A stretch of DNA of 64,000 nt, taken from IMG/VR virus record IMGVR_UViG_3300028805_000071; one strand, given 5' to 3'. The stretch comes from an uncultured virus (IMG/VR IMGVR_UViG_3300028805_000071). Lineage: Duplodnaviria; Heunggongvirae; Uroviricota; Caudoviricetes. A program made the position numbers and the translations under genes. Below the pieces are notes generated by a model. It was given only the letters and a program-made list of their open reading frames with translations. It had not been told where the DNA came from and made no database searches. Positions 4,190 through 58,061 of this stretch are shown here, piece after piece. The stretch's first letter is position 1, and each line of letters opens with the position of its first letter.

Positions 4190-5965
4190 TTATCTAATTG
4201 GGCCAAAGACGTTACCTGATGCATCTAATTGAGCTTCGTTTTGATAGAGTGATTTAATGTCGTCGGCTGATAAAGGTGTTGCATATACCCGATAGTCAGA
4301 TATGTAACCAGCTAAATTTGTGCCTACAGTTACTATATCTGGAATACCTCTTGGGGTAGATGTTTTATTTGGCCCATAATTATTTTTTAATACACCATTA
4401 ATATAGACATTTCTTGTTCCATCACTATTTTTAAATACAAAAGTAACATGTGTCCAAACTCCAGCGCTAACCGCTTGACTTCCATATATATAATAATCAT
4501 TTGTGCCATCATTTAAATATAATAAAGGTGTACTATTAGAAGCATGAACAATATTATTAGATATATTAAAATTGTTCATAGCTTGACTGCCTTGTGATGT
4601 ATTATCTAATTTAACCCACATTGCGCAAGTCCATTCTTGGTCTGTTCCTCCGAACACTGGACGTGGATGGGTTATTAACGTAGTTTTTGACATATAAGTG
4701 GACATTGAATATTTAGGAGTATCGGTTGAAATAGTTAAATTACCATTTATTGTACCATTATTGCAATATCCACTTGCATCATATATAATTGTTGATGTTC
4801 TTGTATTTGTAGTGAATGGAGTCGAGTGGTCTTTTTTCTCAACTTGTATACTACTAACATAAAACTGCTCTTGTGGAGCTATATATCCAACTACATAACA
4901 ATTTAAACTACTATTAGATGGAGTATCATAGTTCCATTTTAATGTGTATTCAATTCTTTGCCATTCATTTGTAAAAGTATAATCTTTACCAGTAGATTGA
5001 GTGTTTGTGCCATTGGTATTGTATAAATGAATATGTGCCCTTTTACCAATTGTTGCACCTTTTCCTTTAACATATGCTGTAACTGTGAAAGTATCATCTT
5101 TGTTCATAATTGTGCCGGGATATATGCTAGTTGCAATTTCTACCGCACCATTACCTGCTGTTGTTGCAGAACTCGTTACTAAAGCCACTTCATTTCCAGC
5201 TATTGGTGGTTCTACTTCTGTTGTAATTGAAATAGTACCCTTACTTCCAAAACCATAGCTACCATAATTTGAAAAACTTTTATTTTCTAAATAATTATAG
5301 GTTGATTCAATATTGCCATCACTTAATGGATAATGAAGCACCAATCCCTTTGAAAGCTCTTTGACTTCTATCGGAGAAAGACAATGGTCGTAGATGCGGA
5401 AATCATTTAAACTCCCCTCTTCATTGCCGCCGCTGGCATATTCTCCTAAATTAAATTTACCTGTAATTGAACCTCCAGCATGAGCGATAGTAAATTTAAG
5501 TTCATTATTAATATAGCAATTGATTCCTTCAGTTTCAGATACAATAACTGCAACATGATACCAAATATCTCGTGCACTAGAAATAACTAAATTAGACCCA
5601 TAAGAACCACCGCTATTAGGAAAAATAGCATAACTGGTATTATTATGCATACTTAAAATATAATTACTATATCCATAACTTGTTTCTAACCTAAACAGAC
5701 CTCCACCACTATCAAAAAATGCGACTACATCATTTCAATTAACTGTAGAGGTAGAAGTCTCTGGTTTATATCAAAAACAAAATGAAAAATTCTTTTTTCC
5801 TGATAAGGTAGGACAATTAAAAGTTAAATAATTATGTAAATTTAAACTTTTATTTCCTATTTTACCACTATCTTTAAAAACCGCCGTCCCTGACAATTGT
5901 TCAATTGTAGCTAAACCTTGATTTCTTAAATCTTTTGTAAGAGGAAGCCAAACTTGTAAACTCAT
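4190..5965 (-). CDS. LamG/concanavalin A-like domain virion protein (591 aa; two in-frame TGA=Trp)
   Basis: ORFs 5771-6031 and 4190-5650 are in one frame joined through TGA (FSFCF*YK, VN*ND); AAGGAGG SD before ATG 5965; LamG motifs WYHVAV, LNDFRIYDHCLS, ISDYRVYATPLS. Confidence 0.85.
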
Positions 5966-7830: not shown

Positions 7831-7859
7831 TTGATTTTTTAAATAAAAAAGTATATAAT
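7831..7859 (+). promoter_or_regulatory. sigmaA-like promoter directly after a terminator hairpin (about 7795-7825)
   Basis: TTGATT-17 nt-TATAAT; preceded by the AATCCCCTC/GAGGGGGATT hairpin and a T-run. Confidence 0.65.
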
Positions 7860-7894
7860 AAATATATAATAGAAAAAATATAGGAAGTAAAAGT

Positions 7895-8549: not shown

Positions 8550-8550
8550 T

Positions 8551-15972: not shown

Positions 15973-16287
15973 ATGGAGCAGGAACAGGTTTTAGGTGTGG
16001 AAGAAGTAACCTTTGATGACGCTGATGTTTCTCAAGATATTGAGAAGAAAATGCAAATCGAAGCCATCGCACGTTTAGTGGTTAATATCGTACTACTGGT
16101 TAACTGGATTTTAACTATTAGCGGTAAAAATCCAATTCCTTGTAGTGAAGATATGCTTTATGCTTGAATTTCAGGCATTGCTTCTTCAGCTTATCTGCTT
16201 TGGGGAGCATGGTGGAAAAACAACAATATGACAATGAATGCTTGCAAAGCCCAAACTTATAAGAACGAGTTAGATAGCACTAAATAA
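15973..16287 (+). CDS. SPP1-family holin (104 aa; in-frame TGA 16165-16167=Trp)
   Basis: IARLVV...LVN..L...GKNPIP then, past the TGA, ISGIASSAYLLWGAWWKNNNMT (WWKNN motif), TAA 16287. Confidence 0.85.
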
Positions 16288-16803: not shown

Positions 16804-16813
16804 TGTACAGATT

Positions 16814-38479: not shown

Positions 38480-38497
38480 GAAAGGTTGGGAAAAAAT

Positions 38498-38926
38498 ATG
38501 GAGGGTTTAAACGCCTATTGGTTAGAAATCCTTTTTGGACTAGTTAGTGCAGCCGTTATGTGAGTCATTCATAGATTATCCAAAGAGGTAAATCGTTATA
38601 AAGAATTATTAGAAAATAAAGAAAATGCAGATTTCATCGCTATTGTAGATGATAAGATGAAACCAGTATTAGAGAAAATAGATAAATTAAACGACCAAAT
38701 GATGGGTTGTAAAGCGAAATTTGACCATAATATGGAACAAAATATTAGATATTATGGGACAATTTTACAAAATGATTGTGAAAATTATATTAGCCGCGGT
38801 TATGTAACTCATAAAGAATTCAATGAACTTGCCGAATTACTTCATATTTATGAAGAACTTGGCGGGGATGGTAAAATTCATGACCTTTATCAAAAGGTTA
38901 TGATGTTACCAGCGGAAGAAGATTAA
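38498..38926 (+). CDS. membrane-anchored holin-like protein (142 aa; TGA 38561-38563=Trp)
   Basis: ATG 38498 is in frame with ORF 38657; N-terminal hydrophobic YWLEILFGLVSAAVM(W)VI; C-terminal YEELGGDG pattern seen in lysis-cassette proteins. Confidence 0.7.
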
Positions 38927-38960
38927 AAAAAAGGGAGAGCTTAATGCTCTCCCTTTTTTT
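38926..38960. terminator. bidirectional terminator at the convergence of the + and - gene blocks
   Basis: A7-GGGAGAGC-TTAAT-GCTCTCCC-T7. Confidence 0.85.
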
Positions 38961-38966
38961 ATTGTC

Positions 38967-39061
38967 TGGCACGCCCCGTAGGATTCGAACCCACACCCAC
39001 CGCTTTGGACACGGTTACCCTGGTTTTGAAGACCAGTGTGCTACCATTACACTAGGGACGC
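38967..39061 (-). tRNA. UGA-decoding tRNA (anticodon TCA), Trp-type body, with a 25-nt extra arm
   Basis: GCGTCCC-TA-GTGT AATGGTA GCAC-A-CTGGT CTTCAAA ACCAG-[GGTAACCGTGTCCAAAGCGGTGGGT]-GTGGG TTCGAAT CCTAC-GGGGCGT-G-CCA; 7/5 acceptor/T stems, G73. Confidence 0.92.
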
Positions 39062-39261: not shown

Positions 39262-39325
39262 AGTTATTTCCTTTTGGGGGAGAGAAGAAATTCTCTCCCC
39301 CTTTTTTTATTTTCTGTAACACTAT

Positions 39326-39354
39326 ATTATATGGTTTTTTTCTGCTAAAGTCAA
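39326..39354 (-). promoter_or_regulatory. sigmaA-like promoter for ORF39261 and the UCA tRNA
   Basis: TTGACT-17 nt-TATAAT on the minus strand. Confidence 0.75.
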
Positions 39355-39360
39355 GTTTGC

Positions 39361-41172
39361 TTAAGCAATATTGTGCATATTATTTAAATAAATTGTATTA
39401 TTATAAAGTTTAGTCATATCAGCTGCTGATAAAGCAGTTGCATATACACGCACGTCAGCAATGGAGCCAATAAATTGACGACTAGTTGATGTAGGATTTT
39501 CTCAATTGGGATGGACTTCCAAACCTATACAGCCAATTGTTTTGGATATATTTGCAAGTGCGCCTGTGCAAGCCACACTTGTATCTAATGAACCGTTTAT
39601 ATATAATTTTACATTACTAGCATCTCAAGTAATAGCTATATGACTTCATTGATTTAATGGTATAGTGCCTGTACTATTGTGGTATCCAGCAGGCGATTTA
39701 CCATATGAATAAGCACTTAAATGCCCCGTACTATCAATAGTTAAATATTGACCACGATAAATTAAAATACAATCTCTATCAGTATTTCTTGCTTTTGGAT
39801 AAACCCATGCCGCTAATGTTAAATTAGTAGCACCTTCATAATCAGGCGGATTTAATATAGCGCAACTTTGCCCTGAAGTAAAATCTGCACAAACTGGATA
39901 AATATGCGTATCACCTGTTCATTGTAAATTATCAGATTTAATACCATGAATATCAAAGCCACTAATATCTTCAATTGCATTAGAATTTAATCCCATTAAC
40001 TTTCCAAGAGTATCAGTTGAATTTGGAATTCAACCAGTTGCTGTAGAACCTTTTTCTAATTTACAGTGTCGTAATTTATAAGTAAATGACGACCCAGCCT
40101 CTCCGGATACAGTAAAACAATAATCAATATACTGAGTATCCGCATCAGGTTTAAATGTTAAAGTAAATTTTTGCCATTTGTTTACTGCCGTAAAATTTTG
40201 AGGATTGGTTCCGCCTCTTCATATCCAAGGACTTGTTGCATTTCCATTATTATAAGATAATCCAATGCATAACGGTTTAGAGGTTTGTGTACTTTGTGCT
40301 TCACATGAAATCGTATAATATGAATTAGAGTCGAGTGCAATATCGCTTGCTTTTCTACAAAAAGCAATACCTATATTGCTGGCGCTATCCACAGTAATAG
40401 TATCTATGCCATTTGCAATATTATGGTTTGATGCAGCTCCATTATAAAATCCACATGGTCGATTTTCCCAACCGCCAGCATTATTACCAAACAACGTACC
40501 TATTTCTTCTTTATCAAATGCCGTTGCTTGAAATAAATTTTCTGAAGGAAAACCTTGCCGAGTTAATGGATAGTGTACCGCTAATCCAGTGGCGAGTGTT
40601 GCTACATCGTTTGCTGATAGACATTCATTGTAAATGCGCACATCATTGAATTTTACATTGCAATAATTTGCTTGATTGAATCTACTCCCCAATGTAAATG
40701 TTAACGCACCATAATTTGCCCCTTTTGCTGCGGTAGATGTTCCAATCAATGCACCGTTTATATAAACTTTGCCCTCAGATGGTGAATGTGTAACACAAAC
40801 ATGATATCATGTATTAGCTGCTCATGTATAATTAAAATATACATATGAGGATTTACTACATCCAATTTGAATTTGAGTATTTGTAATATACATTGGCTGA
40901 TATCCAACGTCGCCATTTGAAGAAATACGTCCATCAAAAACATGTTTTCCTCCCGGTAATGTTGGGAAATAAATCCATGCAGCAAAAGTGATGTTATCAG
41001 TTCCTTCATACGTGCCCGTTAAATAATCATTAGAGCCATCAAAACTATAACAACCGCCCATAGGACAGCCAACGCTATTATCATAAGTAGCCCCATTATT
41101 TGTAATAGTCACATCACTTAATCCTTTTTGTCTTAAATCCTTATTTAAAGGAAGTCAAACTTGTAAACTCAT
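39361..41172 (-). CDS. LamG-domain virion protein (603 aa; at least 9 TGA=Trp), paralogue of 4190-5965
   Basis: AAGGAGG SD; MSLQV*LPL start; fragments 40822-41112 and 40219-40749 share one frame; NT*YHVCVT, NQ*SHIAIT*D, IADVRVYATALS motifs. Confidence 0.88.
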
Positions 41173-41197
41173 ATAATTTTTTCCTCCTTTCAAGAAT

Positions 41198-43555
41198 TTA
41201 ATTTAATAAAAATTGTAAACCTATAGCATTATTAATTTTTACGACATTTATACGAATATTTTGACCGGTTGAAGTTGTGCATATAGCAGATACGGGTAAA
41301 TTTAAATCAACCCCATAATCACTCCATAAAGCATATGGGAAATAACGCTCATGGTCACTTTCTGGAATTGAAATTGTTCCACAATTGCCTACATTTAAGG
41401 TAATAGTACCACCATACGCTTCAGTCATTGCGTCCAATTCATCATAATCAATATATACTCATCCATAATCATCTGTTTTATTACGAATTCAAGCATTCGC
41501 CGCATCGCTATTATTTCCTATATCATATGACCCCAAAAGCATAGATATGGATGTATTCGTTGCAATTGGCTTACCAACAATAGCGCCGCCACCAGTTCCA
41601 AAGACAATCTTTCAAACACCGTTTACTAATACCCAAGCGGAAATAACTTCTTTTCATTCCCCACCATGTTTAGCGTATAAAGTATTGCCAGTGTTTCAAA
41701 TATTATTTTTTTGTCCTCATGTAATAATTTTATTGCGCCATTGAGCAGTTAACGTTATATTAGTTGGTATAACATTAGCAGCTTTAATCACATCTCCCGG
41801 TTGAATAATTGCATTATTATCGCTACGTTTCCAACCTAAAAAATCTTTGCCAAATACCTCTGGCGCATTCGCGGCAACCGTTTGAGTGGTGTATCGCATT
41901 GTTACTGCATCTGGAACGGTACCGAAGCCTCCGTTATTGTAAGTTAAAGTAGCAGTATCTTCTTTTCAATTGGCGTATAAAGTAATTGTTTTATCCGCAG
42001 TAATTTCCGTGCCGCCATTAAGTCGTTTTGTAGTAACTGGATTAGTTTCACCGGCCGCAGTATTTTGCTGATTAAATAAATTACCAGTTCCACTTGTATT
42101 TAACGCATAAGCTGTTTCAGTATCAATATGGTATCCTGTTTTCTTTAATCCAAAAGTACTAACATTTCATAAATTATAATATGTACTTTCTACAGACGGA
42201 GAGGATGTAACATCGGCTCATGTGCTGCCATTATCTGTTGATAATTCAACTAAACTGTCACTACCAAGCCGTCACAACCCATCTACACTGGAATAGCCAT
42301 TAGCAATTGTACCCCCATTAGCATGATATTTAATAGTTACATGACAAGGAGTTCATTGAGCAATCATATTATATGTATTGCCATTAGTTGATGTTCAACT
42401 ACCTGACATATTATATTTATCAGGATAATGACGAATTTCGCCATCTGATGCGCCAGTTCATTGCCATTCATTAAATTTATAACCAGTTTTAGTAAAACCA
42501 ACAGCTGGAAATGCTAATGCTGTTCCATAAGTATGCGTTTGATTGGCCATTGAACCACTAGTAGCGCCGTTCCCGTCAAAATGTATAGTTCAAGTATTTA
42601 AAGCTCAATGAGCATATCAAGTAGCTCCAGACGTCAGAGTAAATTGACGCACTGAGTTACCGGACGCATTATATCATTGGGTGCCACCAGATGTAGCATC
42701 ATAGTATCCTAAGAAATGGTGTCCAGTATATGTTGGTTTGGTAATTGATGGATAACTACCGGCCGCAGTGCCTGTTCTAATTTGAACACTAGTAGTACCA
42801 CCGCTGCCACCATTTGCATTTAAAGTAATTGTTTGTAGCTTGCCTTGGAAACTAGCCGTTGCTGTGCCTGATGTCGTTTGAGACATAGTAACACTTGCGC
42901 TAGTATTACCTCCACTTCACCCTCCGGAATAAGTCCATTTAACGAATTCATAACCTGCTTTAGGAGTGGCTGTAATGGTAAATGATGCGCCAGAAGTATA
43001 AGTTCCGCCTCCAGTAACAGTACCCATAGTAGTATCTGCTGATACAACAGTAGCAGTAATAGTGCTAGTATAAGATGGCGCAGCAATTGATACTGTATAT
43101 GTATCTTGCAAGCCATTATCACGCATTTGAAATTTAAATGTTTTTGAACCACTTGTCCAATTAGAAATAGTCCAGCTACCTATTGTTCCAGTTTTTTGAG
43201 TAGGCTTAGTTTTTACGTCAATATTTGAATCATCACCATGTGCAGAAAAATAGGTAGCTGTATTACTAGTACACTTCCATTTAGTACCACTGCTATTAAT
43301 AACTTTAGATGGATGAGTACTATCTGACCAAGTACCTTCTCATGCGTAAATAGTTACTTGATATTGAGTATAAGACGCACTTGAATTAGCATAACTACCA
43401 AAACCTAAATAATAATAAGCTGTAACAGAAACATTTTTTGATGTTTCTGAACTTCTGGTACAAACAAATTTAATAACACCACCAATATGTGGGCCATCAT
43501 CAAATGCAGCATCCTTAGGGCCGGAGTTTTTAATATAGCCTGTTTTTGTTGACAT
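41198..43555 (-). CDS. adhesin or tail-associated protein with Listeria-Bacteroides (InlB B-type) repeats (785 aa; about 19 TGA=Trp)
   Basis: Five ORF-track fragments in one frame, joined only by TGA; repeat motifs TLNANGG, KTGYKF, YAH*, TLYAN*, LTAQW. Confidence 0.85.
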
Positions 43556-43571
43556 AGACTACCGCACCCCC

Positions 43572-44147
43572 TTATTTCCACTGTCCATTAATATATATAT
43601 CAGCACTAACAGTTCCTGTGTTGCCATTTCTTACAAAACTCAATCCGACTTGTGTCGTAGTACGCGTACGCATACCGGCAGTCCAACCGACGTTGCTCCC
43701 TACTGCTGCGGCGGTAGCCATAGCATAATAATTAGCATTTGCCATCGTAAAAGGAAGAGCAATATCAACTGGTGTCGAATAATACATTGCATACCCATTT
43801 GTTGGAGTACCATAATTATTTCAAGTTAAACTACTACTAGAAAAATGGCCTCAGCACTCTGCAACACCGCTTGCCCATTTTCTATAGGTTCAAATTCCGC
43901 TCGCGCCTTGGTCAACTATCCAGTCAGCCTGGCCTCCACTCGCATCTCCATATTTTAATCAAATACTATTTTCAGGATATGCCTCTGGGGTTGAAGCGTC
44001 TTGATTAGACACTATTATTTTTCCTCTATCTTCGGGAGTAAAATACAACTCATCAGAATTAATTTGCCCATTCTGTAGAGCTATATTGTATTGTTCTTGG
44101 GTGAGATAGTTTATTTTGAATTCAGTTAAATTTTGTGTGCTTGCCAT
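43572..44147 (-). CDS. tail fibre-associated protein with gp53-like C-terminal domain (191 aa; 4 TGA=Trp)
   Basis: I*TYRKWASGVAEC*G motif; fragments 43959-44147 and 43572-43787 in frame. Confidence 0.82.
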
Positions 44148-44184
44148 ATATTCCTCCCCCCCCTCCTACATTTCAAAGGAGGTC

Positions 44185-45642
44185 TTAAAAGACTTTGCGC
44201 CAAGTCCCATCGACATTGACTCAAATATCTTGTATTTTCTTTCAAGTTTTATTTATATTTGCTCAATAGCTATATAATTTTAATCATTCAGAATCTGTGT
44301 TTGCAGCTATTGGTAATTCATATTTGTTTGTTGGCGGCGCTGCTTGTCAAACAGCATAAAGATTAATTGTACCACCATTAGATGAAGTTAAATTTAAAAC
44401 TGACTGGCCATTCGTATAATCACGTGTTCCAGCATCCGCTTTGGCTTGAGTAGTTGCTCATCCATAAAAAATATAGCCAGGCTTGGTAAAACCATTCGTT
44501 GTTAATTTTTTACTAGTTCCATAATAATGGGTCGATGAATTAGTACTTCCTATTGCACCAGTCGCATTATATTTAATTGTATAAGAATTTGGTTGTCAAT
44601 TAACATAAATACTAACTGTTTTATCTGCGGTTAATGTTGTACCGCCATTTAAATTTGTAGTATTAGCGACATTTGTGCTACTGGCCGTCGACTCTTGATT
44701 AATATCAACCCCAGTGCCATCCGCTTTAGTATTATATGCTTTAGTACCAGTTATATGATACCCAGTTTTAGTCGCATTATATGTTGCAACGTTTCATAAA
44801 TTAATATAAGAATCAGCGGTTGTCATTGATGAAACCAGTGTAGAATATGGCCCATCAGCTGTAGTTGTTGAAACTGTTACTAAATTGTTTGAGTATTTAA
44901 ATCAACGACTATTTGTTCCATCTTGATGTGGTGCATCAGCTATTGTGCCGCCATTTAAATTATGCTGTATTTTTAATACTGGATAACGTACAATACTTAT
45001 ATTTACGCTTGGGGAATTATGTGGTGCCGTAGCAGTTACTGTAAAAGTATTTGTGCCATAAGCCAAATCTACCGTGCAAGATGTCGCCGTACCTGAATAA
45101 ACTTGCGTTGAACCTTTTTTAACAGTATACCCAGTAATTGCATTACTAGTGCCATTAGTTCCTTTCCATTTAAGTGTTCCAGTTGCAGAGTTTTGCGGTG
45201 ATGTAGTGCCATTGTTTGCAACAGAAGCGTTGCTTCATAAATTAATTGTAGTTAATACCGCAGTGCCACTTGCTGTTACTACGCCAGTTGAAGTACCATT
45301 AGTATCAAACCTTGCTGAAATTGTAATAGATTTTGACCCATTGCTAGTATGAGTTATACTTTTTGATTTTGATATAAGGGTTACAGTTGAACCTGACCAA
45401 TAATTTAAAGTTGCGTTATAACTAGTTCCATCTATTGTTAAAGTTACCCATGTTGGGTCTCCATCGGAATGTGACCCAAATGAATTTTCTAAATATACAG
45501 TTGCATATACAGTTGATGTGTTAGTTGTACTATTTATGCTATTTGCATCTTCATATCAATCAATACGCAAACGATTGTAACTATAACCATAGCTAGTATT
45601 TCCTACATAATTACCATATATACTCCCACTTTTATTAGCCAT
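44185..45642 (-). CDS. minor structural protein: DUF859-like N-terminus and B-type repeats (485 aa; about 11 TGA=Trp); absent from the ORF track
   Basis: AAGGAGG SD, ATG 45642; open except for TGA to TAA 44185; GYIFYG*A, NLYAV*, C-terminal T*KKIQDI*VNVDGTWRKVF. Confidence 0.82.
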
Positions 45643-45653
45643 ACATTACCTCC

Positions 45654-46415
45654 TTATGCCGTTCTATGCCATCTATTAACAACTATATAAGGTTGCATGA
45701 CAGAAATTGATTTAGCAGTGCCGGTAAAAGTATGCTTATGACTTTCTGCTGTACCAGTAAAACCATGATTATGAGCTCCTCCACCGCCTTTAGCATTGGT
45801 ATTTTGCACAGATGTTTCAGACGTCGTACCATACCAGCCTCTTTGAATTGCTGAAGAGGCGCCAACACCACCATTATATGCATTAAATCCATGGTAATGT
45901 GAAGGAATTTCATTAATCGTAAGTGTATGATTACCAACAGTTCCTTTAGGAGTAACAGATGTATTCTCTACAGTACCGCTAGGCGTATAACTAACACTGG
46001 TCGCACCGCCAGTAGCTCCAGTACTATATCCAGTACCTGCTGATACATGTACTCGCCCAGCTGTTTCTAGCTCTCAAGTACCACCTCAACTAGTCTCAGG
46101 ATTAAAATTTGCATCACTGGTTTCATAATAACTACCGACTGGGTAAAACATATCAAGTAATGTCATTTCACTACCGTACTTCATCCATACTGTTCCATTT
46201 GGATAATCAGTTGCGTTTGTAGCGTCTTCACTTGACAAAACGATATTTTTTAAATTGGCTGTTGCATAGCCGGTTGTTGCGGGGGCCGCTGTCTGGGCCC
46301 CCTTTCCACTATCAGTTAAAATATAAACTTCATCATCATTTACAGTCGCACCGTCATATTGCGCCTGTGTTAAAAAATTGATTTTTAAAGTTGACAAATC
46401 GTGTGTTTCAGACAT
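45654..46415 (-). CDS. baseplate or tail collar-type protein (253 aa; 2 TGA=Trp)
   Basis: YPVGSYY....NP..S*GGT*E, HTLTINEIPSHYH, VNRWHRTA C-terminus. Confidence 0.85.
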
Positions 46416-46454
46416 AATTTTATCTTACCTTTCCAATTAGATTAGCAATAAAAA

Positions 46455-47219
46455 TTATTTAACCTGTTGCATTGCCTTTAATGTTTTCGTGCCTACTATT
46501 CCGTCAACAGTTACCTTTAATTTCTTTTGCATACGTTCTACTCTAGCCTTGGTAATTGGCCCAAAATCTCCATCGACCTTAAGAGCCTTTAAATTTTTAT
46601 CGCCTTTAAAATACCAATTTAAGTATTTTTGAAGTTTCTTAACTTCTTCACCTTTAGACCCCTGCTTTAAAGGGGTATATTTTTGTTGATTAACTACCCT
46701 GAATATTGTTAATCTTGATTTATTGTTCATATCAAAACGAGCATTATGAGCGCTTGTGGTTGAGAAAGCCCAATTGCCAGCAGAAGCTTCTTTAATTTTA
46801 TTACCTTCGCCAACTATAAAAATATGGCCTCTTCTTTTAACACCCTTTTTTGTATAATGTCCAATATCTCCAGGCTGCGCATTTGCTGGAGATACTTTTC
46901 TATATGCCTCAGGGTGGGCATTCATATATTTTAATTGTTTCCATAACCCAAGGGGCATATTTTTATCATACACCGACCTAATGGTTACTCCAGCGCCTAC
47001 ATCACAAGAAAATCCTCTACGACTAGCATCTGACCAATATTTGAATCCTTTTGCAACTTTATTTTGAGCCGCCTTTCATTGAGCTGTTGGATGTCCATTA
47101 GGATAAGCAGCTTCTTTAGGTCTACCAGCATATGCAAGTCTATTGGCCTCGTTAGCTAATCTTTTTTGATAATTAATAGTGGTATATACGCTGGGATATG
47201 CTCCTGTGTACTTACTCAT
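46455..47219 (-). CDS. endolysin: putative Cys/His (NlpC/P60 or CHAP-like) hydrolase with a peptidoglycan-binding domain (254 aa; TGA 47076-47078=Trp)
   Basis: ATG 47219 overlaps the holin stop; FSCD (Cys), QPGDI, GHI (His); C-terminal LKQGSKG.EVK.LQ..L, VDGDFGPIT, VDGIVG. Confidence 0.82.
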
Positions 47220-47523
47220 CTTCTTCATTCCCTTCTACAAACTCAGGGTCATCATATGCTTCTCTTAAATTTTTAATTCCGCTAAATACACCAGCGGCCA
47301 TAAGTCCTTCGCCAAGTCCGGCCAGTATAGCGAGAACAGGATGCATTCCTTGATATATCCAGAATACTCCCATACCAAGCATTGCACCAAAAATAAGGTC
47401 TACATAAAAGATATATTTTGATGCAAACAATTCTTGCTTTTTAATAAGCTCTGCAAGTGCCATAATTAATGCCACCTGTCCAGCTGGAGAAATTAAATAA
47501 GTTATAAGTGTATTAATATCCAT
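47212..47523 (-). CDS. holin
   Basis: 103 aa, three hydrophobic segments, GL.A.GVFSG.KN motif, directly upstream of the lysin. Confidence 0.8.
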   Translation of the reverse strand: MDINTLITYLISPAGQVALIMALAELIKKQELFASKYIFYVDLIFGAMLGMGVFWIYQGMHPVLAILAGLGEGLMAAGVFSGIKNLREAYDDPEFVEGNEEDE

Positions 47524-47626
47524 ATTTGCTCCTTTCTATTTGATTCTGTATAATCAAATGATTCTACGCAATATTCTACTTAAAATTGTTATGAAAGTCT
47601 AATTATGCAGCTGTTCTTGTTTTATA

Positions 47627-48376
47627 TTAATGATTTGCCGCAAGTTCATAGGCACGTGAATATTCATATCCATAGGCTGTTTTATCACATTCATAAAGGT
47701 GCCAAGTCATTGTTATAGTTGTATTTGCTGGATTTATTGCAGTAAATGCGGCTTCTGGAACATAACTAGTATTAATTACCATCGCAACATTGCCTAATAT
47801 TAAATCAATATAATTAGAATTTGTAGACCAACTAATAGAGCCCGTTCCAGAATGATATATACCGCATCCACTATTAGTAATTCCATATGTATTATCAGCT
47901 TTTTGATATAATAATGCATGCGGAGTTTGAATATATGAAGAACCTTTTCTAAAAGTTGCTGAAGTGTTTAATATTCCTGTAGTAGAATTTATACTATCAA
48001 TGTACTTGCCTTCATGATAATCCCTAACTTGGCAATGTCTAATTGGATGAATTGTCCCGCTTACACTATTACTTCCATAATTATATTCTGTAATACATTC
48101 TGCAAACCCCATATAATCATGTTGATTAAAATCAATTTTTGTCCCGTCATATGCTTCTCCAATACGAAAACAAGTAATTGTACTTCCTCCGCTGGTACTA
48201 TAAGTTGTTGCTGGTAAAGTTAAATTTTGAGAAGTAGTACTTGGCGTTAAACTACTATAATTAGTCTGCCCTAAATTAATAGAATAAGTTTTTGTTAAAA
48301 GCAAACGTCCATTAAGACCATATCCCCCATTAGTTCCCGCTAAACTTACCTTATCTGTGCCTAAATATATTGCCAT
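47627..48376 (-). CDS. hypothetical structural protein (249 aa)
   Basis: MAIYLGTDKV start, Ser/Thr/Gly-rich, in the tail gene cluster. Confidence 0.7.
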   Translation of the reverse strand: MAIYLGTDKVSLAGTNGGYGLNGRLLLTKTYSINLGQTNYSSLTPSTTSQNLTLPATTYSTSGGSTITCFRIGEAYDGTKIDFNQHDYMGFAECITEYNYGSNSVSGTIHPIRHCQVRDYHEGKYIDSINSTTGILNTSATFRKGSSYIQTPHALLYQKADNTYGITNSGCGIYHSGTGSISWSTNSNYIDLILGNVAMVINTSYVPEAAFTAINPANTTITMTWHLYECDKTAYGYEYSRAYELAANH

Positions 48377-48379
48377 AGT

Positions 48380-51300
48380 TTACCACCTCACTATTTGTAC
48401 TAATGTTCTTGTTCCCCATTCAGTTGTTGTGCCATTTGAAATTAATGTTTTTCCATTGTCATTAGTTGTACTTGTAATTTGTGATGGCGCAATCGCAATT
48501 GATTGGAATGTTGCGCTAATTTTACCATTTGTTTCGGTTAATGTAGCCAAAGTTTTTCCTGCCCCAAAACCAGAAATATTAGAAACATCAAGCGCTGCAA
48601 TAGAATCATATACTAATTTAGGTGTTGCAGCTAAACTTTGTTCTGAACTACTGGAAGTTGAAGATAATTTAGTAACGCCATATACACTAGTTGATGCTTT
48701 AGTAATTGCCTGTGCTGTTCCACTACGACCTAAAACTGTAACATTAATTTTTGGAGCATTACTTGCATCCCCAGCTGTAATTGAAATGCCGGGAGAAATA
48801 TTAACCCATTTTGGTGCTTTAGTCGCACCATCTCCAACAAGTGCTTGAGTATCTGCGGTACCGCCAGCAGTAGGAGCATATATAGATACACTACTAGTCT
48901 GGTCAGCGCCATTAATATCTGCGGTATAATTAGTATAATTAGCTTCAGTTAAAATATATTTCCATTCGCCCCAATCCGAAGTATTACTACTATTAGTTGC
49001 CCCTCTAACCATTGGAGAAGGGTCATTTTTATCGTGCCTTAAATAAAATTGAGCTGCCCATCCACTATTATCCCAATGATAAGTAGTTATATATCCATCA
49101 CCAGCTGGTGGCTTATGAGTAGTCATTGAACTACTTGCTAAACAAAAATGTACTTTAGATAAATAACTAGGCGTTAAATAATCTGCACTGGCCGGTCTAC
49201 CTAAATTAGTAATATAGTTAGTTGTTGTAGCAACACTCCAAGATTTTTTACTTCCTGCGCTAGTACCAGTAGTATCTCCAGTCAATGCAACTGTAGCATT
49301 TGAACTAAATTCAGTAGCCGTCGTTGCATTTCCATCTAAAGCACCAACTATATGTCCATTTTCTAAAAATTTAATTTGTGCAGTTGTAGCATTATTATTA
49401 GCATAATTAGTATCAGTTATATAACTAAAAATTAAATCATCTGTATAACTAGCATTGTCATAAGTACCGACATCCCAAGAACCATTAGTAGTCTTAGCTG
49501 ACCACAATGGAGTATATCCATTAATTGAGGTTGTTTTAATTAATACATTATCTCTACCTTTATTCCAACTAGTAGATACTCCAGCACGAGAAATTGCACC
49601 AGTCATTGTACCACCAGCGAGTGGCAATTTGGTATTATCCCTCGCACTACCATTCGCTAAAGCTTTACCCTGTGCCGCACTCAATGAATCTGTTGTACTA
49701 TCACTAGTTAAATTATTCTGAATACCACGCCAAGTATTAGTATCTGTAGCTGCAAATGTTACATTTCCGCTTGCATCAGATGTAATACTCATATTATTAC
49801 CAGGTACTAATTTTATTCTACTAGTAGCAGAACCACCATCAACATTAATTAAATAAGTATTACCAGATGTAGTTGTTGCATTAACACTACCATTAGAAGC
49901 TCCAGCATATAAATAAGATGTATTATGAGTATTAGTATCAGTACTTTTTACAGTAATGGTTTTACCATCAGCACTAGATGTTACTGTAGTAGCTCCATCA
50001 CCCATTATTCTAACACTATCTCGAAGAGCAGATTCTTCAATTAAATTTAGATATGGATTAGAAGTAGCTGTTGTTACTTGAGAAGTACTAGTAGCTGAGT
50101 TTGCAGTTCTTAAATGAGCTGTATAATGTGTATCTGTATCTGTATTGGTATCTGTCCAAGGAACATTAACATACATTTGTCCATTAGATAATTGAACTGG
50201 ATAATTTTTACCATTAGCAGCATACCCTATTTTAACTAATCCTAATGTACTAGAAGTGGCTGTTGAATAAGTAGTATCTTGAGCTGGAATTCCCAACCCA
50301 GTAATATCTGCTTTAGCTACTGCAGTAGCTGATGTTACATGACCCAAATTATTAATAGTAATCTTATACAATCCATTATTATAAGAAGTGTGAGTTGGAT
50401 GAGTATAAACAGTATCCGTAAACTTAGGATTACTACCAACCTCAACCCCGTTAATAGTATTTGCACTTATATTATTTGTAAAACTTGCATTTCCAGTAAC
50501 CAATAATTGGCCAGCTGTTAAGTCGTCGGCAGATACAGAATCACCAAAATTAACTGGGCCAGTAAAGTTAGCTCCACTTAATTGGGCATAACCACTTAAG
50601 TCTATAACTGTGCCTAATTCTTCCCAAGCACTGCCATTCCAAACATATTCACTACCATCTGCAGTAATATGCCATACATCACCAGTTGTATTACTAGAAG
50701 AAGGCAAATCTCCTACTGTGGCTTTGGTGCCCTTATAATGAAATACACTTGCAATTAAATTATTTACTTCGTTTTTAGTATAAGGAGTAAAACCAAGAGC
50801 CGTTGTTACTTGACTTGAAGTTAATGCACCTCGTAAATTTGTAGCAGTAAGTGTCCCACTAGATGGATTAAACGTTAATTTTCCGCTTTTATACGAAGAA
50901 TTTGTTGCTGTAGTATCATTCGCATCATGTGATAATAAAACTCTCAGTGTAGAGTTTGCTGTTGAATTTTCTTGTTTTACTAAAGTGTCAGTATTGGTGT
51001 TTGTCGTATAACTTGGTGCAGCCCAAGTACCATCTTCACGTAAGAACTTAGTGTTTTGAGTTTGTGTGCTTACAGTCGCTCCTTTTGGTGCGACACCAGC
51101 GCTCGAACTAGATACTTGTGGAATATTTGCGGCTATTTGTGCTCCAGCATTACTGCCCGCATAAGTTAATGTCATTTTTACGGGATTAGTGGCATTAGAT
51201 GTGCTATCATCCGCAAATGCCGCAGACCCTACATATGTATCAGTATTATTATCTGCAGGAATGGCTCACGTGCCATCGGCACGCCAAAATTTTGTGTTAT

Positions 51301-51727
51301 ATCCGTCTTTAGGTGGGGTAGCATTAATATATCCTCCACTACCATTAGCAGCAGAGGTAGCTCCAGTCATTGCGGTTCATGTATCAGTATTATTCCAATC
51401 ATTCATAATCCAGGCATCGCCAGTATAAGTGAATGAAACAACTGCACCAGCAGGCCATGAAGTTGCTGCAGTGGTACCAGGCACTGTAGTGCCATATCTA
51501 TATATAGATTTTGCTTGACCTTCTGTTCCTACTATTAATTTTGGGCTTGCCGCGGTATTACTATTAGTAAATTTTACATGTAATGTAACGCCAGTAATTA
51601 AAGTATCGAAATCAGATAATGTAACCGTTTTATTAGCAGTATTCGCAGCTGTATCACAAGTTCCATATAAAGCAGAGCCAATTGGATATGTAGTATTACC
51701 TATCTTTGTTTTTGCTATATAAGTCAT
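48380..51727 (-). CDS. long tail fibre protein (1115 aa; 2 TGA=Trp)
   Basis: ORFs 51377-51727 and 48380-51175 in frame; KFWRADGT*AIP versus internal KFLREDGTWAAP; LPLAGGTMTG, ATSSTLGLVKIG, AATPKLV fibre motifs. Confidence 0.85.
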
Positions 51728-51746
51728 ATCTTTATCCCTCCTTTAA

Positions 51747-52718
51747 TTAACCATTCGCCTGCAGCGCAGTAAGCACCGTCTGTGATTTTTTAGTAACAAC
51801 TGTTGGAGTATTTGTTGTCCAAGATTTAACCGCTTCAAAACTCTGCGATTCTGTTTCTGGTAATGTTCCAGCATCCCACGCGCTAATATATGTAGCAGTT
51901 AATGCAGTTCCTAGCGTAGGAGCAGTGCCATTAGTAATGGTCAGCACTCCAGCAGACACAGACGCATTTGTTGCAGTACCAGCACTGGTTACATTTGGAA
52001 TTGTAACATTACTCTTGGTCATTGAAGGAGTAGTTCATGTGCTACCATACTTAATACCGCCAACATTTACAGTTTCAGTTGTTAATGTAGCAGCAACACC
52101 GCTTGTAATTGAGTTTATAATATCTATAGACTTACTAGTTGCCCCATATTTAGTATCACTTGCGCTAATAATAATTGTATTATCATTATCTGTTGGGGTA
52201 AAACTTATATTACCGCCTGATTTAAAAACTAAAGTATCTTCAATATCATTTGCTGCTACATCAGTATAAGCATTATTACTTGTATAAACTCTAACTTTAC
52301 TAAAACCATCTATTCCACTTAAATCATCTAAAGTCTTTTTGTCTGCCGCAGTCATTAAACCGAGCGCAGATTGTGTTGCAGTCGGTATATTTACATAATT
52401 ATTTTGGCCAGTTGCGCCATCAGAGCCCGTCAGTTTAATATCAATTCCTGTATATCCGCTTCGAGTGCTTGATTTAGATAAATCATATTTTGAGTCTACC
52501 GCAGACAGAACACCGGTATCAGCAATGCTTAAATTACTGCCAACTTTAATACCGCCTAAACTCGATGCGCTCGCTATTGGTAATACGTATGTATTATCAC
52601 CAGGAATTAAATAAAGCTCATTATCATTAATCAGCCCTTTATTTACCATCGCATCATAAACTGCTTGGCTTGCGACATGATTAATGGTTAATTTTGTTAA
52701 ATTTATTTCACTAGGCAC
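51747..52718 (-). CDS. tail fibre-like protein (323 aa; TGA 52035-52037=Trp)
   Basis: Two fragments in frame; LPIASASSLGGIKVG and ATQSALGLMTAADK repeats. Confidence 0.8.
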
Positions 52719-52735
52719 GTCTATCTCTCTCCTTT

Positions 52736-55123
52736 CTAATTACCTTTAACGTAATTAGCAGACGTGCTAAATACGCTAGATAAATCTGATTGCTCTACTC
52801 AAGAGCCGTTTATTTTTTTATAAACTTTAGAATACATTCTTCATGTATTATTTTCTTTTACATATAATTGTATCGTAGCATCTCCGGCCACTACATTAAT
52901 TGTATGATTTGCAGAGATATTATTTAATTTATATTTATAACTTACAACAGGATTATTATTTTTATCAACACCAGTTTCACGCTCTAATTGGGGTGTAACA
53001 TTATTTCCATTATCAGTAATTGTAATAGTTGAACTAACACTATTTGGAACAATATTTAATACATAACCATCTCCGTCTAATTTAACTTGTTGTCCATCAG
53101 GGAATAAGCGCATTCCTGAGGTACCAGATGAAGTAATGTACCAAAAATCTACATCACCAAATACAAAGATTAAGCTATGCTTTTGAGTAACATTTGTTAA
53201 TGTATATGTATAATCTCCTCCAATAGAAGTGGCCTCTACACTTAATACTTTTCATTGTAAACTATCATATCCATCTTCTGAAGCGTCATCTTTACCATAT
53301 TTAATATCAATAAAGTGCTCTCCCATCGGAACTTCATAAGTTACAGTTTGCGCAGAACTTGAGTTAGTGCATCTTGCGATTTGATAATGTGAAGTTGAAT
53401 CTGAAGGGGATGAACCGCCACTAGAAGCCGTAAGTCCATCTGTTGCAACTTCAGTGTCTAACTTACCAAACATACCATAATCATAATTTGCTTCGGCATA
53501 ATTTATATATTGAATTGTAACCAAACATTCTGATTCAAAATTCATATTTAATCTTGCCACAGAAGCAGATTTGTTCACGCCATCATTTGTCGATACATAA
53601 TAACCAGTTGAGTTATTTAAATAAAACCCATAATTGGCGCCACTAACTTGTGTATCAATTGTATAAGTATTATTTGGTGTGCCGCCTTGCAACTGACTTG
53701 TAATATCTACACCATTATCAAGCGCAAGAGTTAGTTGCGGGTCGCTAGGCGTAATAGTAATTGTCTGATTAGCGCCCTCAACAACACGTACGGTTCCATT
53801 TGCTGGATTAGTAATCGCATTAATACTTGAGATTGTGATTGGCCAATATGTTTCTGTTGGGTCTTCTTCTGGTGGAATAAATACACCGGCTTCGTCAACT
53901 AAAATAACGTGGTCTGCCGATAAATTCGACATTGTATATGTATAATAATAATCATTACCGGCACTCGGCATTGTGTATGTTACATTTCATGTAATACCAC
54001 AAAGCAATCCGCCATAATATCCTACAGTAAATCTTAAAGTTGCATTTTGTAATTCAGAACGAGTTCAAGTACCGGGTGTTGGTACAGTAAACAGATAATT
54101 AGATGTACTCGTTAATTCATAATCATCGCCCTTTTGAGTAGAGCCTGAATATAAACTAACCATTGCTTTATAGCTACTACTAACACTTGAACTTTCTCTA
54201 TGGCCATACCCCTTTACTTCAATATTAGTGATTGTAGCATTATTTGGAATATCGCTAAAATCAAAACTGTATGTAACATAACCATTAGAACCACTAGAAG
54301 CGTACATATTGTTAGTTGAGCTGTATGGGTTTTCAGCGCTACGCCCGACTGCATATGCAGCGTAACTTGTTCCACTTTGAATGCCGCTTGTTGTTTGCGA
54401 CTCAGCGGTTTTAGATAAAGCCCCACCAGTTTCAACTTGGTGCTGTTCTAATAAATTATTTACCTCAATACCATTATCAGTTACAACAACATCATCAATA
54501 TTTGCTGCATCAATACGCACAATCGCTTCTTCACCACTCATTACTTCTTGTGAAGCTGGGGTTACTGTTGCTGAAGCAACCGAACTTGACGCCGTGATAG
54601 TATAAGCTGTGCCATTAATACTATAATTAATAGTTAAATCTGCTCCGTAAAAATATAAATAAGCTGCACGATTTGCATTTGAATTACTGCGTTCACCAGT
54701 AAGTCGAACTTGAATATCGCTTAATTCAGCTAATGTCCATGAACCAGTATTGCTAATAGAACGTGAAGTGGCAGATGTAGATGAAGCTGAAGTTGCAGCG
54801 CCCTTTGCAGTAGAACCACAATATAATTGAATAGTAGATGTAGGTAAGTAAGAAGTAGAACTTACTCTTGATTTAACACTACACGCAACTGAATTAATTG
54901 TAGCTCCTGCAGGTATACTAGATACATTGAAAGTATATGAAATATAAGACTCTGCCCAAGAACCAGTTCTACAAGTTATATATGCATAATTTGTACTTGA
55001 AGCAGAATCATATCCATTTGAAATAGGATATGAACTACTTACGCCAGAATAAGAAGAATTAGCACTATCATAATCAACAGGATGAAGAGTGACGCTATCT
55101 GTCACATTTATAACTCTTGCCAT
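52736..55123 (-). CDS. structural or adhesin protein with internal duplicated domains (795 aa; about 5 TGA=Trp)
   Basis: Three fragments in frame; PGT*TRSEL versus internal GSWTLAEL; C-terminal LYVKENNT*RMYSKVYKKINGS*V. Confidence 0.83.
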
Positions 55124-55135
55124 ATTTTCTCCTCC

Positions 55136-57616
55136 TTATTGCTGTAAATAAATATCTCCATTATTACCTAATGAAGATGACGGAGCCGTAGCTCCAGTAT
55201 AATATTTATTAATTACAAGTGTGCCGGTAATTAATTCTCCGTCGACGTAAGCAGTAACACCATCAAGAATTTCTGTCGCGCCAGCCGTAGCATCACTTGT
55301 AAATGTACCATTTACTCCAAAAATATTTACACCTGATTTAATATTGCCAGCTACTAAATCAGCATCTCCAGCAATCGTCTGCGTTCCAGTTAAATAGGTG
55401 CCAGAAGCGATTGTTTGATTTGAAGTTCCTGGAGTAATTGTAGCAGCTGCTTTAGTAGTTACATTAGCGGTTAAAGTAACACTACTATTACCAGCAGTAC
55501 CAGCACTAATATAGCCAGCTGTTGTTACATTTGGTGTTACACTAACAGTCTTTGTAAGAGTTAATGTATTGGTTCCAGTAGAAACAGTAGCTGTTGTACC
55601 ACTAATTGAACTTGGTGCTGTAACACTGCCATTTGGAGTTGCGCTAATTTGATAATACGCAGTAGAAGAGTTATATCCAACTGGGATATTGATATATTGC
55701 ACAGCTGTGCTTCTGCCAATTGTTGCTTTTCTTGTGCCACCAGATACAGCCGTTGAGCTTGCGCTTGTCGGTAATGTCATTGATGCAACTGACTTGCTAG
55801 CAGCTGAGCTATAATATCCGGCCGGAGCGGTCACTGTACCGCCATTAACTGTTAAATCATCGCTATCTCTTTGTGAGATTCCGCTACCAACATAAGTTGA
55901 AGAAATTGCTCCAACTTTAACTACTCCAGTTGTATAAACGCCAGAAGCAACTGCGGTTTGTTCGCTTTCTGTTGGAGTAACTGTTTTAGCCGCTTGAGTT
56001 GTTAATTGTTTTGTATTTGAATAACTATTATCAGTTGTAAATCCTCTTGTCCAACTACCAGAAGCAGTAATTACACCAGCGCTACTAACACTAATAGTTG
56101 GGTCTGGGATATTAACAGTTGTATGACTTACAGTACCAGTTCCATTATGATAACCAGCTGGAATAGTAACACTTGTTGTAGTTTGGTCTAATGTTCTACT
56201 CCAAGCAGCATTATTAGTCATTGTACCAGTTAATAACTGACCTTCATTATTATATGCCTGATAGCCAGCTAAAATTTGGCCTACTGCGGCAGCAGTATCT
56301 GGAGCTGGTAAAACTGTACTTAAATCTTTAGTTAATGTTGTTTGATTATAATATCCAGCGGGAATTGTGATACTAGCTCTTACACCATAATCCCCAGTTT
56401 CTTCTTCAAAAGAAGCCACATTTAAAGCGGTATTAGTAATACTACTAGCTGAAAGGCTGGCAGTAACTGTACCACCACTAGTATATCCAGCTGGAATTGT
56501 ATATGTGCCGCCTTGTGCAGTAATAGTTCCGCCAGTAGCGCCATTATTAGCCATACTACCAGTAATTTTTGAACCATTTACATAAGCGGTTTTATTCTTT
56601 AAAATATTTGCTGCGACCGCATCGGCATCACTAGTTGTAATATAAGCGGCCGGAATAGCATTAACAGTTACAGTTCCTAAACCGGTATATCCACTATCCG
56701 CAGAAACACTTTGCTGACTTTTAGTAGGAGTAACTGTTTTATTTTGATTGTTGATTGTACCTCCAGTAGGAACATTTACAGTAACTGAAGAAAACCATTT
56801 TCCAGAACTTGGGGAATGGGTTCCATTAGATGTAATTGTAGTTGTTTCTGAAGGAACAGCTGCTACTGAAATTGCTCCTAATGTATACACGTTTTTAGCT
56901 ACAGCTGTTTGGGCTGAAGCGCTTGGTGTAATTGTTGTTGCGGCCTTTGTGGTTAATTGCAGTGTATCTGATTTAGTACCAGCAGCAACGTAACCCTCGG
57001 TTTGTGTTGCGCTTGCAGTAATTAAACCAGTGTTATCAATTGAAACTGAAGGTGTTGCTTGGGTTGCTGTTGCAACAGATTTTGTGACTTTAGACGCATA
57101 ATATCCAACAGGCACTATAACACTTGCCCCAGAGGCGGTTACATCGGTAGCAGTACGTTGTGTAATGCTACTACCTATATAAGTACTTGAAATCGGCTCT
57201 ACAACAACTTGACTTAAGCCATCATATCCAGAGTCAGGGGTTGCGTATTGCCTGGTCTCTGTTGGAGTTACCGTTTTTGATTGGGTTGTAAAATTACCTC
57301 CACCAGCATGGGTTCCAGTAACACCGAAGATTGTTACTCCGTCTTTAATATTCGCTGCAATTAAATTACTATCGCCTAGTATGGTTTGCGCACCAGCGAT
57401 ATATTTACCAGCTGAGATTACTTGGTTAGTTGTGCCAGGAGTATAAGTCGTGGCCGCTAAATCTGGCATTGTACCAGTTATTTGGCCATATCGTCCATAA
57501 GCAATTAAACCGGCACGTAAATCACTTGCATTTTGTAAAGTGGCGCCGGCTGTACTTCCAGAGGCTGTTCCAACAACTACACCATCAATTTTTTCACGAT
57601 TAAAATAAATTGGCAT
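55136..57616 (-). CDS. repetitive Thr/Ser/Gly-rich tail fibre protein (826 aa)
   Basis: Repeats KTVTPT, TIPAGY, NIK.GV.IFGV.GT, AYVNG..ITG. Confidence 0.85.
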   Translation of the reverse strand: MPIYFNREKIDGVVVGTASGSTAGATLQNASDLRAGLIAYGRYGQITGTMPDLAATTYTPGTTNQVISAGKYIAGAQTILGDSNLIAANIKDGVTIFGVTGTHAGGGNFTTQSKTVTPTETRQYATPDSGYDGLSQVVVEPISSTYIGSSITQRTATDVTASGASVIVPVGYYASKVTKSVATATQATPSVSIDNTGLITASATQTEGYVAAGTKSDTLQLTTKAATTITPSASAQTAVAKNVYTLGAISVAAVPSETTTITSNGTHSPSSGKWFSSVTVNVPTGGTINNQNKTVTPTKSQQSVSADSGYTGLGTVTVNAIPAAYITTSDADAVAANILKNKTAYVNGSKITGSMANNGATGGTITAQGGTYTIPAGYTSGGTVTASLSASSITNTALNVASFEEETGDYGVRASITIPAGYYNQTTLTKDLSTVLPAPDTAAAVGQILAGYQAYNNEGQLLTGTMTNNAAWSRTLDQTTTSVTIPAGYHNGTGTVSHTTVNIPDPTISVSSAGVITASGSWTRGFTTDNSYSNTKQLTTQAAKTVTPTESEQTAVASGVYTTGVVKVGAISSTYVGSGISQRDSDDLTVNGGTVTAPAGYYSSAASKSVASMTLPTSASSTAVSGGTRKATIGRSTAVQYINIPVGYNSSTAYYQISATPNGSVTAPSSISGTTATVSTGTNTLTLTKTVSVTPNVTTAGYISAGTAGNSSVTLTANVTTKAAATITPGTSNQTIASGTYLTGTQTIAGDADLVAGNIKSGVNIFGVNGTFTSDATAGATEILDGVTAYVDGELITGTLVINKYYTGATAPSSSLGNNGDIYLQQ

Positions 57617-57629
57617 AGGCTACCTCCTT

Positions 57630-58061
57630 TTAGTTAGCTACGTCCGCAGCTGTTCATGTTTTAACTTGAACCAATGGCGGAATTTGAATGGTTGTATTTC
57701 TTCCACCCGGTCTAGTCATTGTTAAAGTACTTGTAGCATAATTAAATGATAAATCTGCTATATACGTGTCTATAATTGGTCGAGGCAAGCCCGTGTCTGG
57801 GTCGTATGTAGGTGCGGTATCATATGTTGCTGTATTTGCTAAAACTGCAGTATCAGCAACTGATGGACGCAATTCGAGCCTATAAACTGTTTTCCCATTT
57901 ACCTGACCTTGCTTAAATATTGGTATATTAAGAGGCGCTTTATCTAAAGCTACATCTATGTAAAATCTTCCATTGTCAGGGGTGAAATAAGCAAAACCAT
58001 CATTAAGCGCTACAGAGCTTAATCTGCTTGAATCACCACGTAATATTTTAAAAAGTGCCAT
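57630..58061 (-). CDS. hypothetical tail-associated protein (143 aa; TGA near the C-terminus)
   Basis: AAGGAG SD; MALFKILRG...DG.AYFT.D.GRFYID; LVQVKT* parallels LVQIVRW of the 48380 gene; TAA 57630. Confidence 0.72.

Follow-up and report, generated by a model that had tools for sequence, protein, structure and literature searches.

The window analysed here is a stretch of 64,000 nucleotides (64 kb) from an uncultured phage (IMG/VR record IMGVR_UViG_3300028805_000071; Caudoviricetes). In its minus-strand tail block at 39361-58061, and in some genes elsewhere, the codon TGA occupies tryptophan (Trp, W) positions. No tallied gene of the window stops at TGA, and the window contains an intact tRNA gene with anticodon UCA and a tRNA-Trp-type body, tRNA(UCA). 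The explanation proposed is that the phage reads UGA as Trp in tail-fibre, lysis and resolvase genes by means of this tRNA of its own, with its early genes kept in the code of the host, and we would give it, taken as a whole, a probability of about 0.93. A preliminary description, made from the letters of the window, had proposed the reassignment for the tail gene cluster. It is confirmed there; the use of TGA is not confined to 39361-58061, as a holin gene, a RuvC gene and a LamG paralogue elsewhere carry it too, and that description contained neither the tRNA(UCA) gene at 38967-39061 nor the recoded genes beyond the cluster.

In the block, 10 of 13 genes carry in-frame TGA, 55 codons in total:

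39361..41172 (frame 39361-41193), minus strand: LamG-type tail fibre or receptor-binding protein; 9 TGA; Pfam Laminin_G_3, 1.6e-46
41198..43555, minus strand: Listeria-Bacteroides or InlB B-repeat tail protein; 19 TGA against 10 TGG; Pfam Flg_new, Flg_new_2
43572..44147, minus strand: tail fibre protein; 4 TGA; phrog_2712
44185..45642, minus strand: tail protein; 11 TGA against 4 TGG; phrog_372
45654..46415, minus strand: baseplate Gp10_C-type tail protein; 2 TGA; Pfam PF21939
46455..47228, minus strand: endolysin-like protein with PG_binding_1 domain; 1 TGA
47212..47523, minus strand: holin-like protein; no TGA; phrog_1299, 1.4e-14
47627..48376, minus strand: gene; no TGA
48380..51727, minus strand: long tail fibre, 1115 amino acids (aa); 2 TGA against 21 TGG; Pfam Phage_fiber_rpt
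51747..52718, minus strand: tail-associated protein; 1 TGA
52736..55123, minus strand: virion protein, 795 aa; 5 TGA, all of them TGG in a standard-code orthologue (L004, see below)
55136..57616, minus strand: structural protein, 826 aa; no TGA
57630..58061, minus strand: 143-aa protein; 1 TGA, at codon 136

The 12 tallied genes (all of the above except 55136-57616) comprise 5,309 codons, with 55 in-frame TGA, 60 TGG, 0 TAA and 0 TAG, so that TGG accounts for 60/115 Trp codons and about half are spelled TGA. Off frame, the same genes hold 237 TGA, 499 TAA and 255 TAG; since TAA and TAG are equally or more common there, the openness of the frames is specific to TGA. Under table 11, open reading frames (ORFs) of 100 aa or more cover a fraction of 0.539 of 39361-55123. 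Making TGA a sense codon raises this to 0.984, against 0.595 if TAG is made sense and 0.745 if TAA is: the frames of the block are open only if TGA is sense. This is the kind of comparison (table 4 against table 11) that the preliminary description had suggested, and it bears out the statement there that standard-code fragments join into full-length genes. Shine-Dalgarno-like motifs lie upstream of 14/17 minus-strand genes; the LamG gene, for example, starts with the ATG at 41172, preceded by AAGGAGG. The 50 tallied genes of the window stop at TAA (43) or TAG (7) and never at TGA, in agreement with the earlier remark that none of the genes called ended in TGA. Among the gap ORFs, only 7646-7834 stops at TGA, and it continues in the same frame into the ORF after it, up to 8083. 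TGA is thus unused as a terminator across the window, codon 158 of the RuvC gene being ambiguous.

Contigs of one sheep-gut RNA-library sample span TGA-bearing stretches (e.g., 39280-40136 and 41585-42186) with 0 differences, and there is no sign of UGA editing in these contigs, which may include DNA carry-over. Four runs were compared as contigs and hence give no RNA ends, strand or level; bins that were not covered count as no evidence.

For the residue at the TGA sites, homologues were searched with TGA read as glycine (table 25) and aligned with X at these sites; the Gly-read queries left the search unable to favour W. The LamG gene has 109 homologues, with W in 495/796 non-gap cells at its 9 TGA columns and in 413/485 cells at its 5 TGG columns; W is the commonest residue at 7/9 TGA columns; of the other two, G leads in one and gaps fill nearly all of the other. 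In the B-repeat gene (best 120 of 230 homologues), W fills 195/792 cells at the 17 of 19 TGA sites that are covered, the W background being 2.7%; TGA at Trp positions had been described for both genes. Log-odds summed over the 21/26 columns having at least 10 residues are +54.9 bits for W, -9.1 for Y, -49.9 for G, -52.9 for S and -65.5 for C, with all residues other than W negative. The TGA sites align with tryptophan in homologues, as the assignment in the preliminary description would have it.

Related phage loci (L001-L006; related contigs of up to 135.8 kb) were fetched with the 826-aa structural protein. Unfiltered tblastn against them gave many low-complexity alignments, and the top alignment per locus was used for gene 52736-55123. 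The orthologue in L004 is identical at 452/815 positions (55%) and has TGG at 5/5 TGA sites; the L004 locus is equally open under the standard code. In the same gene, TGG stands at 2/2 TGA sites in L002, 1/2 in L003, 0/2 in L005 and 0/2 in L001, the last two being more distant orthologues than L004. Judged by the openness of their ORFs, L001 and L003 look TGA-recoded; L002, L004 and L005 look standard.

Paralogues within the window had been quoted to identify the amino acid. The two quoted 24-mers occur once each, both on the minus strand, at 5942-5965 (with TGG) and 41149-41172 (with TGA), with 0 occurrences expected by chance; the peptide pairs TVWMKYG and SI[TGA]LKYG, EDGTWAAP and ADGT[TGA]AIP, and GSWTLAEL and GT[TGA]TRSEL are likewise present in the sequence. 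The gene at 5965, cited as the TGG counterpart, does have TGG within the 24-mer but itself contains 2 in-frame TGA. A tally over within-window paralogues is weak: at 11/26 covered TGA sites, one or more alignments place W or a further TGA opposite.

The putative decoder is found 300 bases beyond the stop codon of the last recoded block gene, where the two gene arms of the window converge, and has the outline of a small unit:

39326..39354, minus strand: sigma-70-like promoter match at the head of the tRNA unit; TTGACT, 17-nt spacer, TATAAT; 11/12
38967..39061, minus strand: tRNA, anticodon UCA, 95 nt; ARAGORN; Rfam tRNA, 55.7 bits; minimum-energy fold a five-arm cloverleaf
38926..38960, no strand assigned: two-way terminator-like hairpin separating the tRNA from the convergent plus-strand genes; 15 pairs

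The phage thus encodes a suppressor-type tRNA with anticodon UCA and a body of Trp type. It has a 7/5 acceptor/T arrangement, a 4-bp D stem and G73, and its CCA end is encoded. Compared with a phage tRNA(CCA) (L124), the acceptor strands match at 6/7 and 6/7 positions and the T arm at 16/17, and both have G73. Set against bacterial tRNA-Trp, G73 and the acceptor, D and T body are of Trp type, and the anticodon arm holds UCA in place of CCA. The D arm was considered as a Trp marker and rejected as not specific, the same 18-mer being present in tRNAs with anticodons TTG (23), CCA (17), GTG (8) and others; Trp identity is therefore based on the acceptor and T arms together with G73, a determinant of tRNA-Trp according to the section of PMC9976931 drawn on here. 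Terminator-like sites are more frequent in the window than expected (4 found, 0.7 expected). A 69-aa ORF (39052-39261, minus strand) lies between the promoter-like site and the tRNA, with its TAG stop within the first 10 tRNA bases; it has no homologue in any fetched locus and was left uncalled.

Outside the tail block, in-frame TGA was found in the following genes:

4190..5965, minus strand: LamG paralogue of 39361-41172; 2 in-frame TGA
15973..16287, plus strand: SPP1-type holin; TGA at codon 65; Pfam PF04688, 56.5 bits
37232..37711, plus strand: RuvC-type Holliday-junction resolvase; TGA at codons 106 and 158; Pfam RuvC over residues 4-146
38486..38926, plus strand: 146-aa protein, phrog_4257; 1 TGA, at codon 26

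One in-frame TGA each is also present in 1694-2008 and in the frame 7646-8083. Codon 65 of the holin lies inside the Pfam match and is W in 6/6 full-length homologues, including one with 97% identity. Three shorter homologues from the database (P0236, P0238, P0239) are gene calls that end exactly before the TGA position, which indicates that relatives share the recoded codon and have been annotated as truncated proteins. Standard-code gene callers cut recoded genes apart, so that tail-fibre and lysis genes of such phages are systematically mis-annotated. Codon 106 of the resolvase corresponds to W in 144/150 library representatives, with a conserved acidic motif downstream. A GIY-YIG homing-endonuclease domain forms residues 240-323 of the frame 16796-17782 (plus strand), which has TGA at codon 8 and begins with a transmembrane or coiled-coil part; only 17273-17782 is open under table 11, and the endonuclease probably needs read-through.

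In the 33 tallied plus-strand genes (10,575 codons) there are 142 TGG and 3 TGA; 31 of these genes are without any TGA, and the 3 TGA all fall in the two genes at the end of this arm, next to the tRNA. The plus-strand replication and nucleotide-metabolism genes up to about 37 kb are readable by the standard code. From these TGA-free early genes we infer that the host uses the standard code.

The proposed course of events is as follows. Early plus-strand genes could be read by host ribosomes as they stand; fibre, holin, endolysin and resolvase messages would halt at UGA until a Trp-charged phage tRNA(UCA) competes with host release factor 2 (RF2). This tRNA would be made from its own small unit (promoter-like site, tRNA, two-way terminator) and charged with Trp, most likely by the host tryptophanyl-tRNA synthetase (TrpRS). 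Full-length tail fibres, holin and resolvase would be obtained only once tRNA(UCA) has accumulated. TGA terminates none of the phage's genes, so that its stop codons are safe from suppression, which should come at no cost to the phage.

Among known systems, Mycoplasma and Spiroplasma (NCBI table 4) read UGA as Trp cell-wide by a tRNA-Trp with anticodon UCA. The window resembles them in the codon, the residue and the anticodon of the decoding tRNA; it differs in that only some phage genes are recoded, the tRNA is phage-borne and TGG is kept for more than half of the Trp codons of the block. The closest likeness is to the Agate phages, a Firmicutes-infecting clade with genomes of about 127 kb and TGA-to-Trp recoding (Borges et al., bioRxiv 10.1101/2021.08.26.457843). 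According to the portions of that preprint consulted here, recoding affects structural and lysis genes and leaves replication genes in the standard code; intron endonuclease, tail protein and lysis transmembrane protein are preferentially recoded; and relatives differ in code, recoded or standard. The window shares with these phages TGA as W, a suppressor tRNA(UCA), several recoded modules, standard-code replication genes, close standard-code relatives and an animal-gut source; the likeness is one to the published description, not a placement in the clade. The pattern fits this description. The mechanism set out above is the model of Borges et al., and the recoding is a clean further example of the TGA-to-Trp 'code 4' gut phage phenomenon, for which the preliminary description had rightly pointed to known recoded phages. 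The present analysis contributes the decoder tRNA with its transcription unit, the recoding of the holin and the resolvase, and independent support for a conserved CCA hairpin (see below). There is experimental precedent for charging by TrpRS: of 13 phage tRNA(UCA) tested in E. coli cell-free reactions, 13 inserted Trp, as given in the text of Seki et al. (bioRxiv 10.1101/2025.10.30.685624). Like the tRNAs described there, the present one is a phage-encoded UGA suppressor with G73; unlike the orthogonal pair described there, which includes a phage TrpRS, it has no TrpRS gene to accompany it within the 64-kb window.

Several observations weigh against the explanation or against parts of it. The TGA sites are less conserved than the TGG sites, W making up 25% of cells at TGA sites of the B-repeat gene and 94% (219/233) at its TGG sites (best 120 of 230 homologues); with Y nearly as common as W at these TGA sites (183/792 cells), Trp is unproven at single sites. 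Codon 158 of the resolvase is second-last, falls in a tail that is not conserved and might just as well be the stop. No TrpRS or release-factor gene was seen within the window. Promoter matches of at least 11/12 are not enriched in the window as a whole (8 found, shuffle mean 4.5), and the promoter-like site upstream of tRNA(UCA), taken alone, is weak evidence; if real, a host-type promoter would point to early rather than late synthesis of the tRNA, which would weaken a simple timing switch. Trp at UGA in the proteins of this phage is a prediction from sequence.

In the alternative that survives best, TGA does mean Trp and plays no regulatory part: once a suppressor tRNA existed, TGG would have drifted to TGA under AT pressure, and mosaic fibre modules would have been swapped in from recoded phages. 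TGA is indeed densest in the most exchangeable genes, 43/55 falling in the receptor-binding modules 39361-45642, and it stands at the less conserved sites. A relative of about 95% identity in run X5, from another study, has replaced or skipped segments in tail-fibre genes at 40587-46413, which suggests, from sequence comparison, module exchange in exactly the most TGA-rich region. The host-type promoter match of the tRNA fits as well, as does the lack of TGA in the phrog_1299 holin-like gene and in a second endolysin (6379-7497). On the other side, single TGA codons in the holin (conserved W65), the resolvase (W106) and the endonuclease frame (codon 8) fall in classes that, in the portions of Borges et al. 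referred to above, are preferentially recoded, and the holin TGA recurs in relatives, where the three truncated gene calls end. We hold this alternative to be a serious possibility with the odds somewhat against it; the recoding may time expression or may be mostly drift and module exchange.

Far less probable is that the coding is matched to the host, i.e., that UGA already means Trp in a Mollicutes-like host among the Bacilli and that the phage simply keeps to its host's code throughout, without any switch. The GC-poor genome (0.30-0.40) and one LamG homologue (P0095), labelled as a 'Bacilli bacterium' metagenome-assembled genome, are in keeping with such a host. Genomes of code-4 hosts are expected to use TGA throughout, whereas 31 plus-strand genes here lack it while the 33 together hold 142 TGG; moreover, the phage has a tRNA(UCA) of its own and close relatives in standard code. 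According to the portions of Borges et al. consulted, about 90% of the genes contain in-frame TGA in genomes whose code matches that of a code-25 host, which also speaks against host-matched coding.

That TGA stands for another residue is very improbable. Serine (Ser) would suit a long-armed tRNA, selenocysteine (Sec) the label 'tRNA-SeC' printed by ARAGORN, Gly would follow table 25, and cysteine (Cys) may be added; the long variable region and G73 are indeed as in Ser and Sec tRNAs. The label reflects the anticodon only. In tRNA-Sec the acceptor/T arrangement is of the 8/5 type, the D stem is long and the body selC-like; the present tRNA, with its 7/5 arrangement and 4-bp D stem, is unlike the selC-type tRNAs of the same search and was rejected as tRNA-Sec. 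Its body matches tRNAs with a CCA anticodon, and the Sec, Gly, Ser and Cys readings were rejected on the log-odds given above. Against Ser there is also C2-G71, which the section of PMC9976931 drawn on here counts among the negative elements of E. coli tRNA-Leu against seryl-tRNA synthetase. Pseudogenes or assembly errors, for which nothing speaks beyond the in-frame stops under table 11, are practically negligible as an explanation: the counts of 55 TGA against 0 TAA or TAG in frame already exclude them, conservation continues past the TGA sites, and contigs of other runs carry the same sequence.

In the reading preferred here, the phage-borne tRNA(UCA) decodes UGA as Trp, and this tRNA has an additional arm. 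Its variable region of 25 nt forms a 5-bp stem with a 7-nt loop, GUCCAAA, and 4-nt linkers; the loop, G-U-CCA-A-A, has the shape and sequence of the anticodon loop of tRNA-Trp. As in class II tRNAs (Ser, Leu, bacterial Tyr, Sec), an extra helix stands between anticodon arm and T arm; unlike the arm of these, it has a 5-bp stem between 4-nt linkers and a 7-nt loop of anticodon type (U-CCA-A); the D arm is of class I type and the body matches tRNA-Trp. A pattern search of viral contigs found 27 loci, 26 of them tRNA-like genes that combine a UCA anticodon with this kind of hairpin on quite different tRNA bodies; the loci carrying the hairpin, with loop (G/C)UCCA(A/U)A, are L037-L063, L067, L077, L099, L113, L148 and L151. 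The pattern fixed the loop motif (TCCAWAG), so that only stems and bodies count as free evidence. Across 19 distinct sequences the hairpin stem is 95.7% paired, 4/5 pairs change on both sides, and the measures for the whole structure are reached by 0/500 shuffles. In a sample picked by the D-arm 18-mer alone, the hairpin is present in 6/7 tRNA(UCA), the remaining one having a short variable loop; tRNA(CCA) sharing the D arm have it in 0/16 distinct sequences, all with a 5-nt variable loop. A search by the anticodon arm found it in 4/8 non-selC tRNA(UCA), the window's own excluded.

Searches of the literature found no description of a CCA-loop hairpin on phage tRNA(UCA). The extra hairpin is unmentioned in the text of Seki et al., whose supplementary figures and sequences may show such tRNAs, and the term 'variable arm' is absent from the Borges et al. 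preprint. The conserved hairpin may be a new part of the system. It could serve as a second, working 'anticodon arm' that shows U-CCA-A to the host TrpRS, Trp being charged by way of the spare arm and the stop codon read by the UCA arm; we put this forward tentatively, as an idea that falls just short of even odds. It fits the identity rules, in that anticodon and G73 are the main identity marks of TrpRS (PMC9976931, section as above). Against it, E. coli TrpRS need not tell C34 from U34 (PMC12135181), and the arm is missing from some phage tRNA(UCA) (L026, L035, L128). If true, such a handle would uncouple the choice of amino acid from the codon read; it would be a natural split of tRNA identity from decoding, relevant to code evolution and to the engineering of suppressor tRNAs. 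Separate from these are tRNA-like genes at L064, L078, L115, L129, L172, L178 and L179, which have the D arm and a loop CTTCGA followed by long unrelated sequence; these could be interrupted (intron-bearing) tRNA(UCA).

The window consists of a plus-strand arm, from 1 to about 38.9 kb, and a minus-strand arm, from 39361 to the end. The plus arm encodes a large DNA polymerase, topoisomerase II subunits, DnaB-like helicase, primase and RecJ-like exonuclease, further an anaerobic ribonucleotide reductase, dUTPase, a sigma factor and a set of RNA ligase, kinase and phosphoesterase; the minus arm encodes tail and fibre genes, one endolysin-like gene and one holin-like gene. No terminase was identified within the window, and megablast of the tail block against the phage collection gave no named phage matching at the DNA level. 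Near-identical DNA is present in sheep-gut metagenome runs, one of which is possibly the window's own source, with partial matches in other ruminant-gut runs. We infer that the window belongs to a large virulent-type phage from ruminant gut, with a host of low-GC Firmicutes type.

A second tRNA gene of the window, tRNA-Glu with anticodon CUC, lies in the early region at 719-794 (plus strand). RNA ligase, polynucleotide kinase and two phosphoesterases (2922-4151, 8076-8549, 8539-9120 and 9581-10438; plus strand) form a tRNA-repair-like set, which would suit a host with anticodon nucleases and may bear on the oddness of the phage tRNA. Two genes, 34303-34926 (1.9e-16) and 37733-38479 (3.7e-29), both on the plus strand, match the formate/nitrite transporter family (PF01226), an odd membrane-channel cargo near the anaerobic ribonucleotide reductase genes. 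The structural arm has, at its far end, a gene without TGA (61181-63754, minus strand) for a BspA-type leucine-rich repeat protein of 857 aa (PF13306, 5.4e-17).

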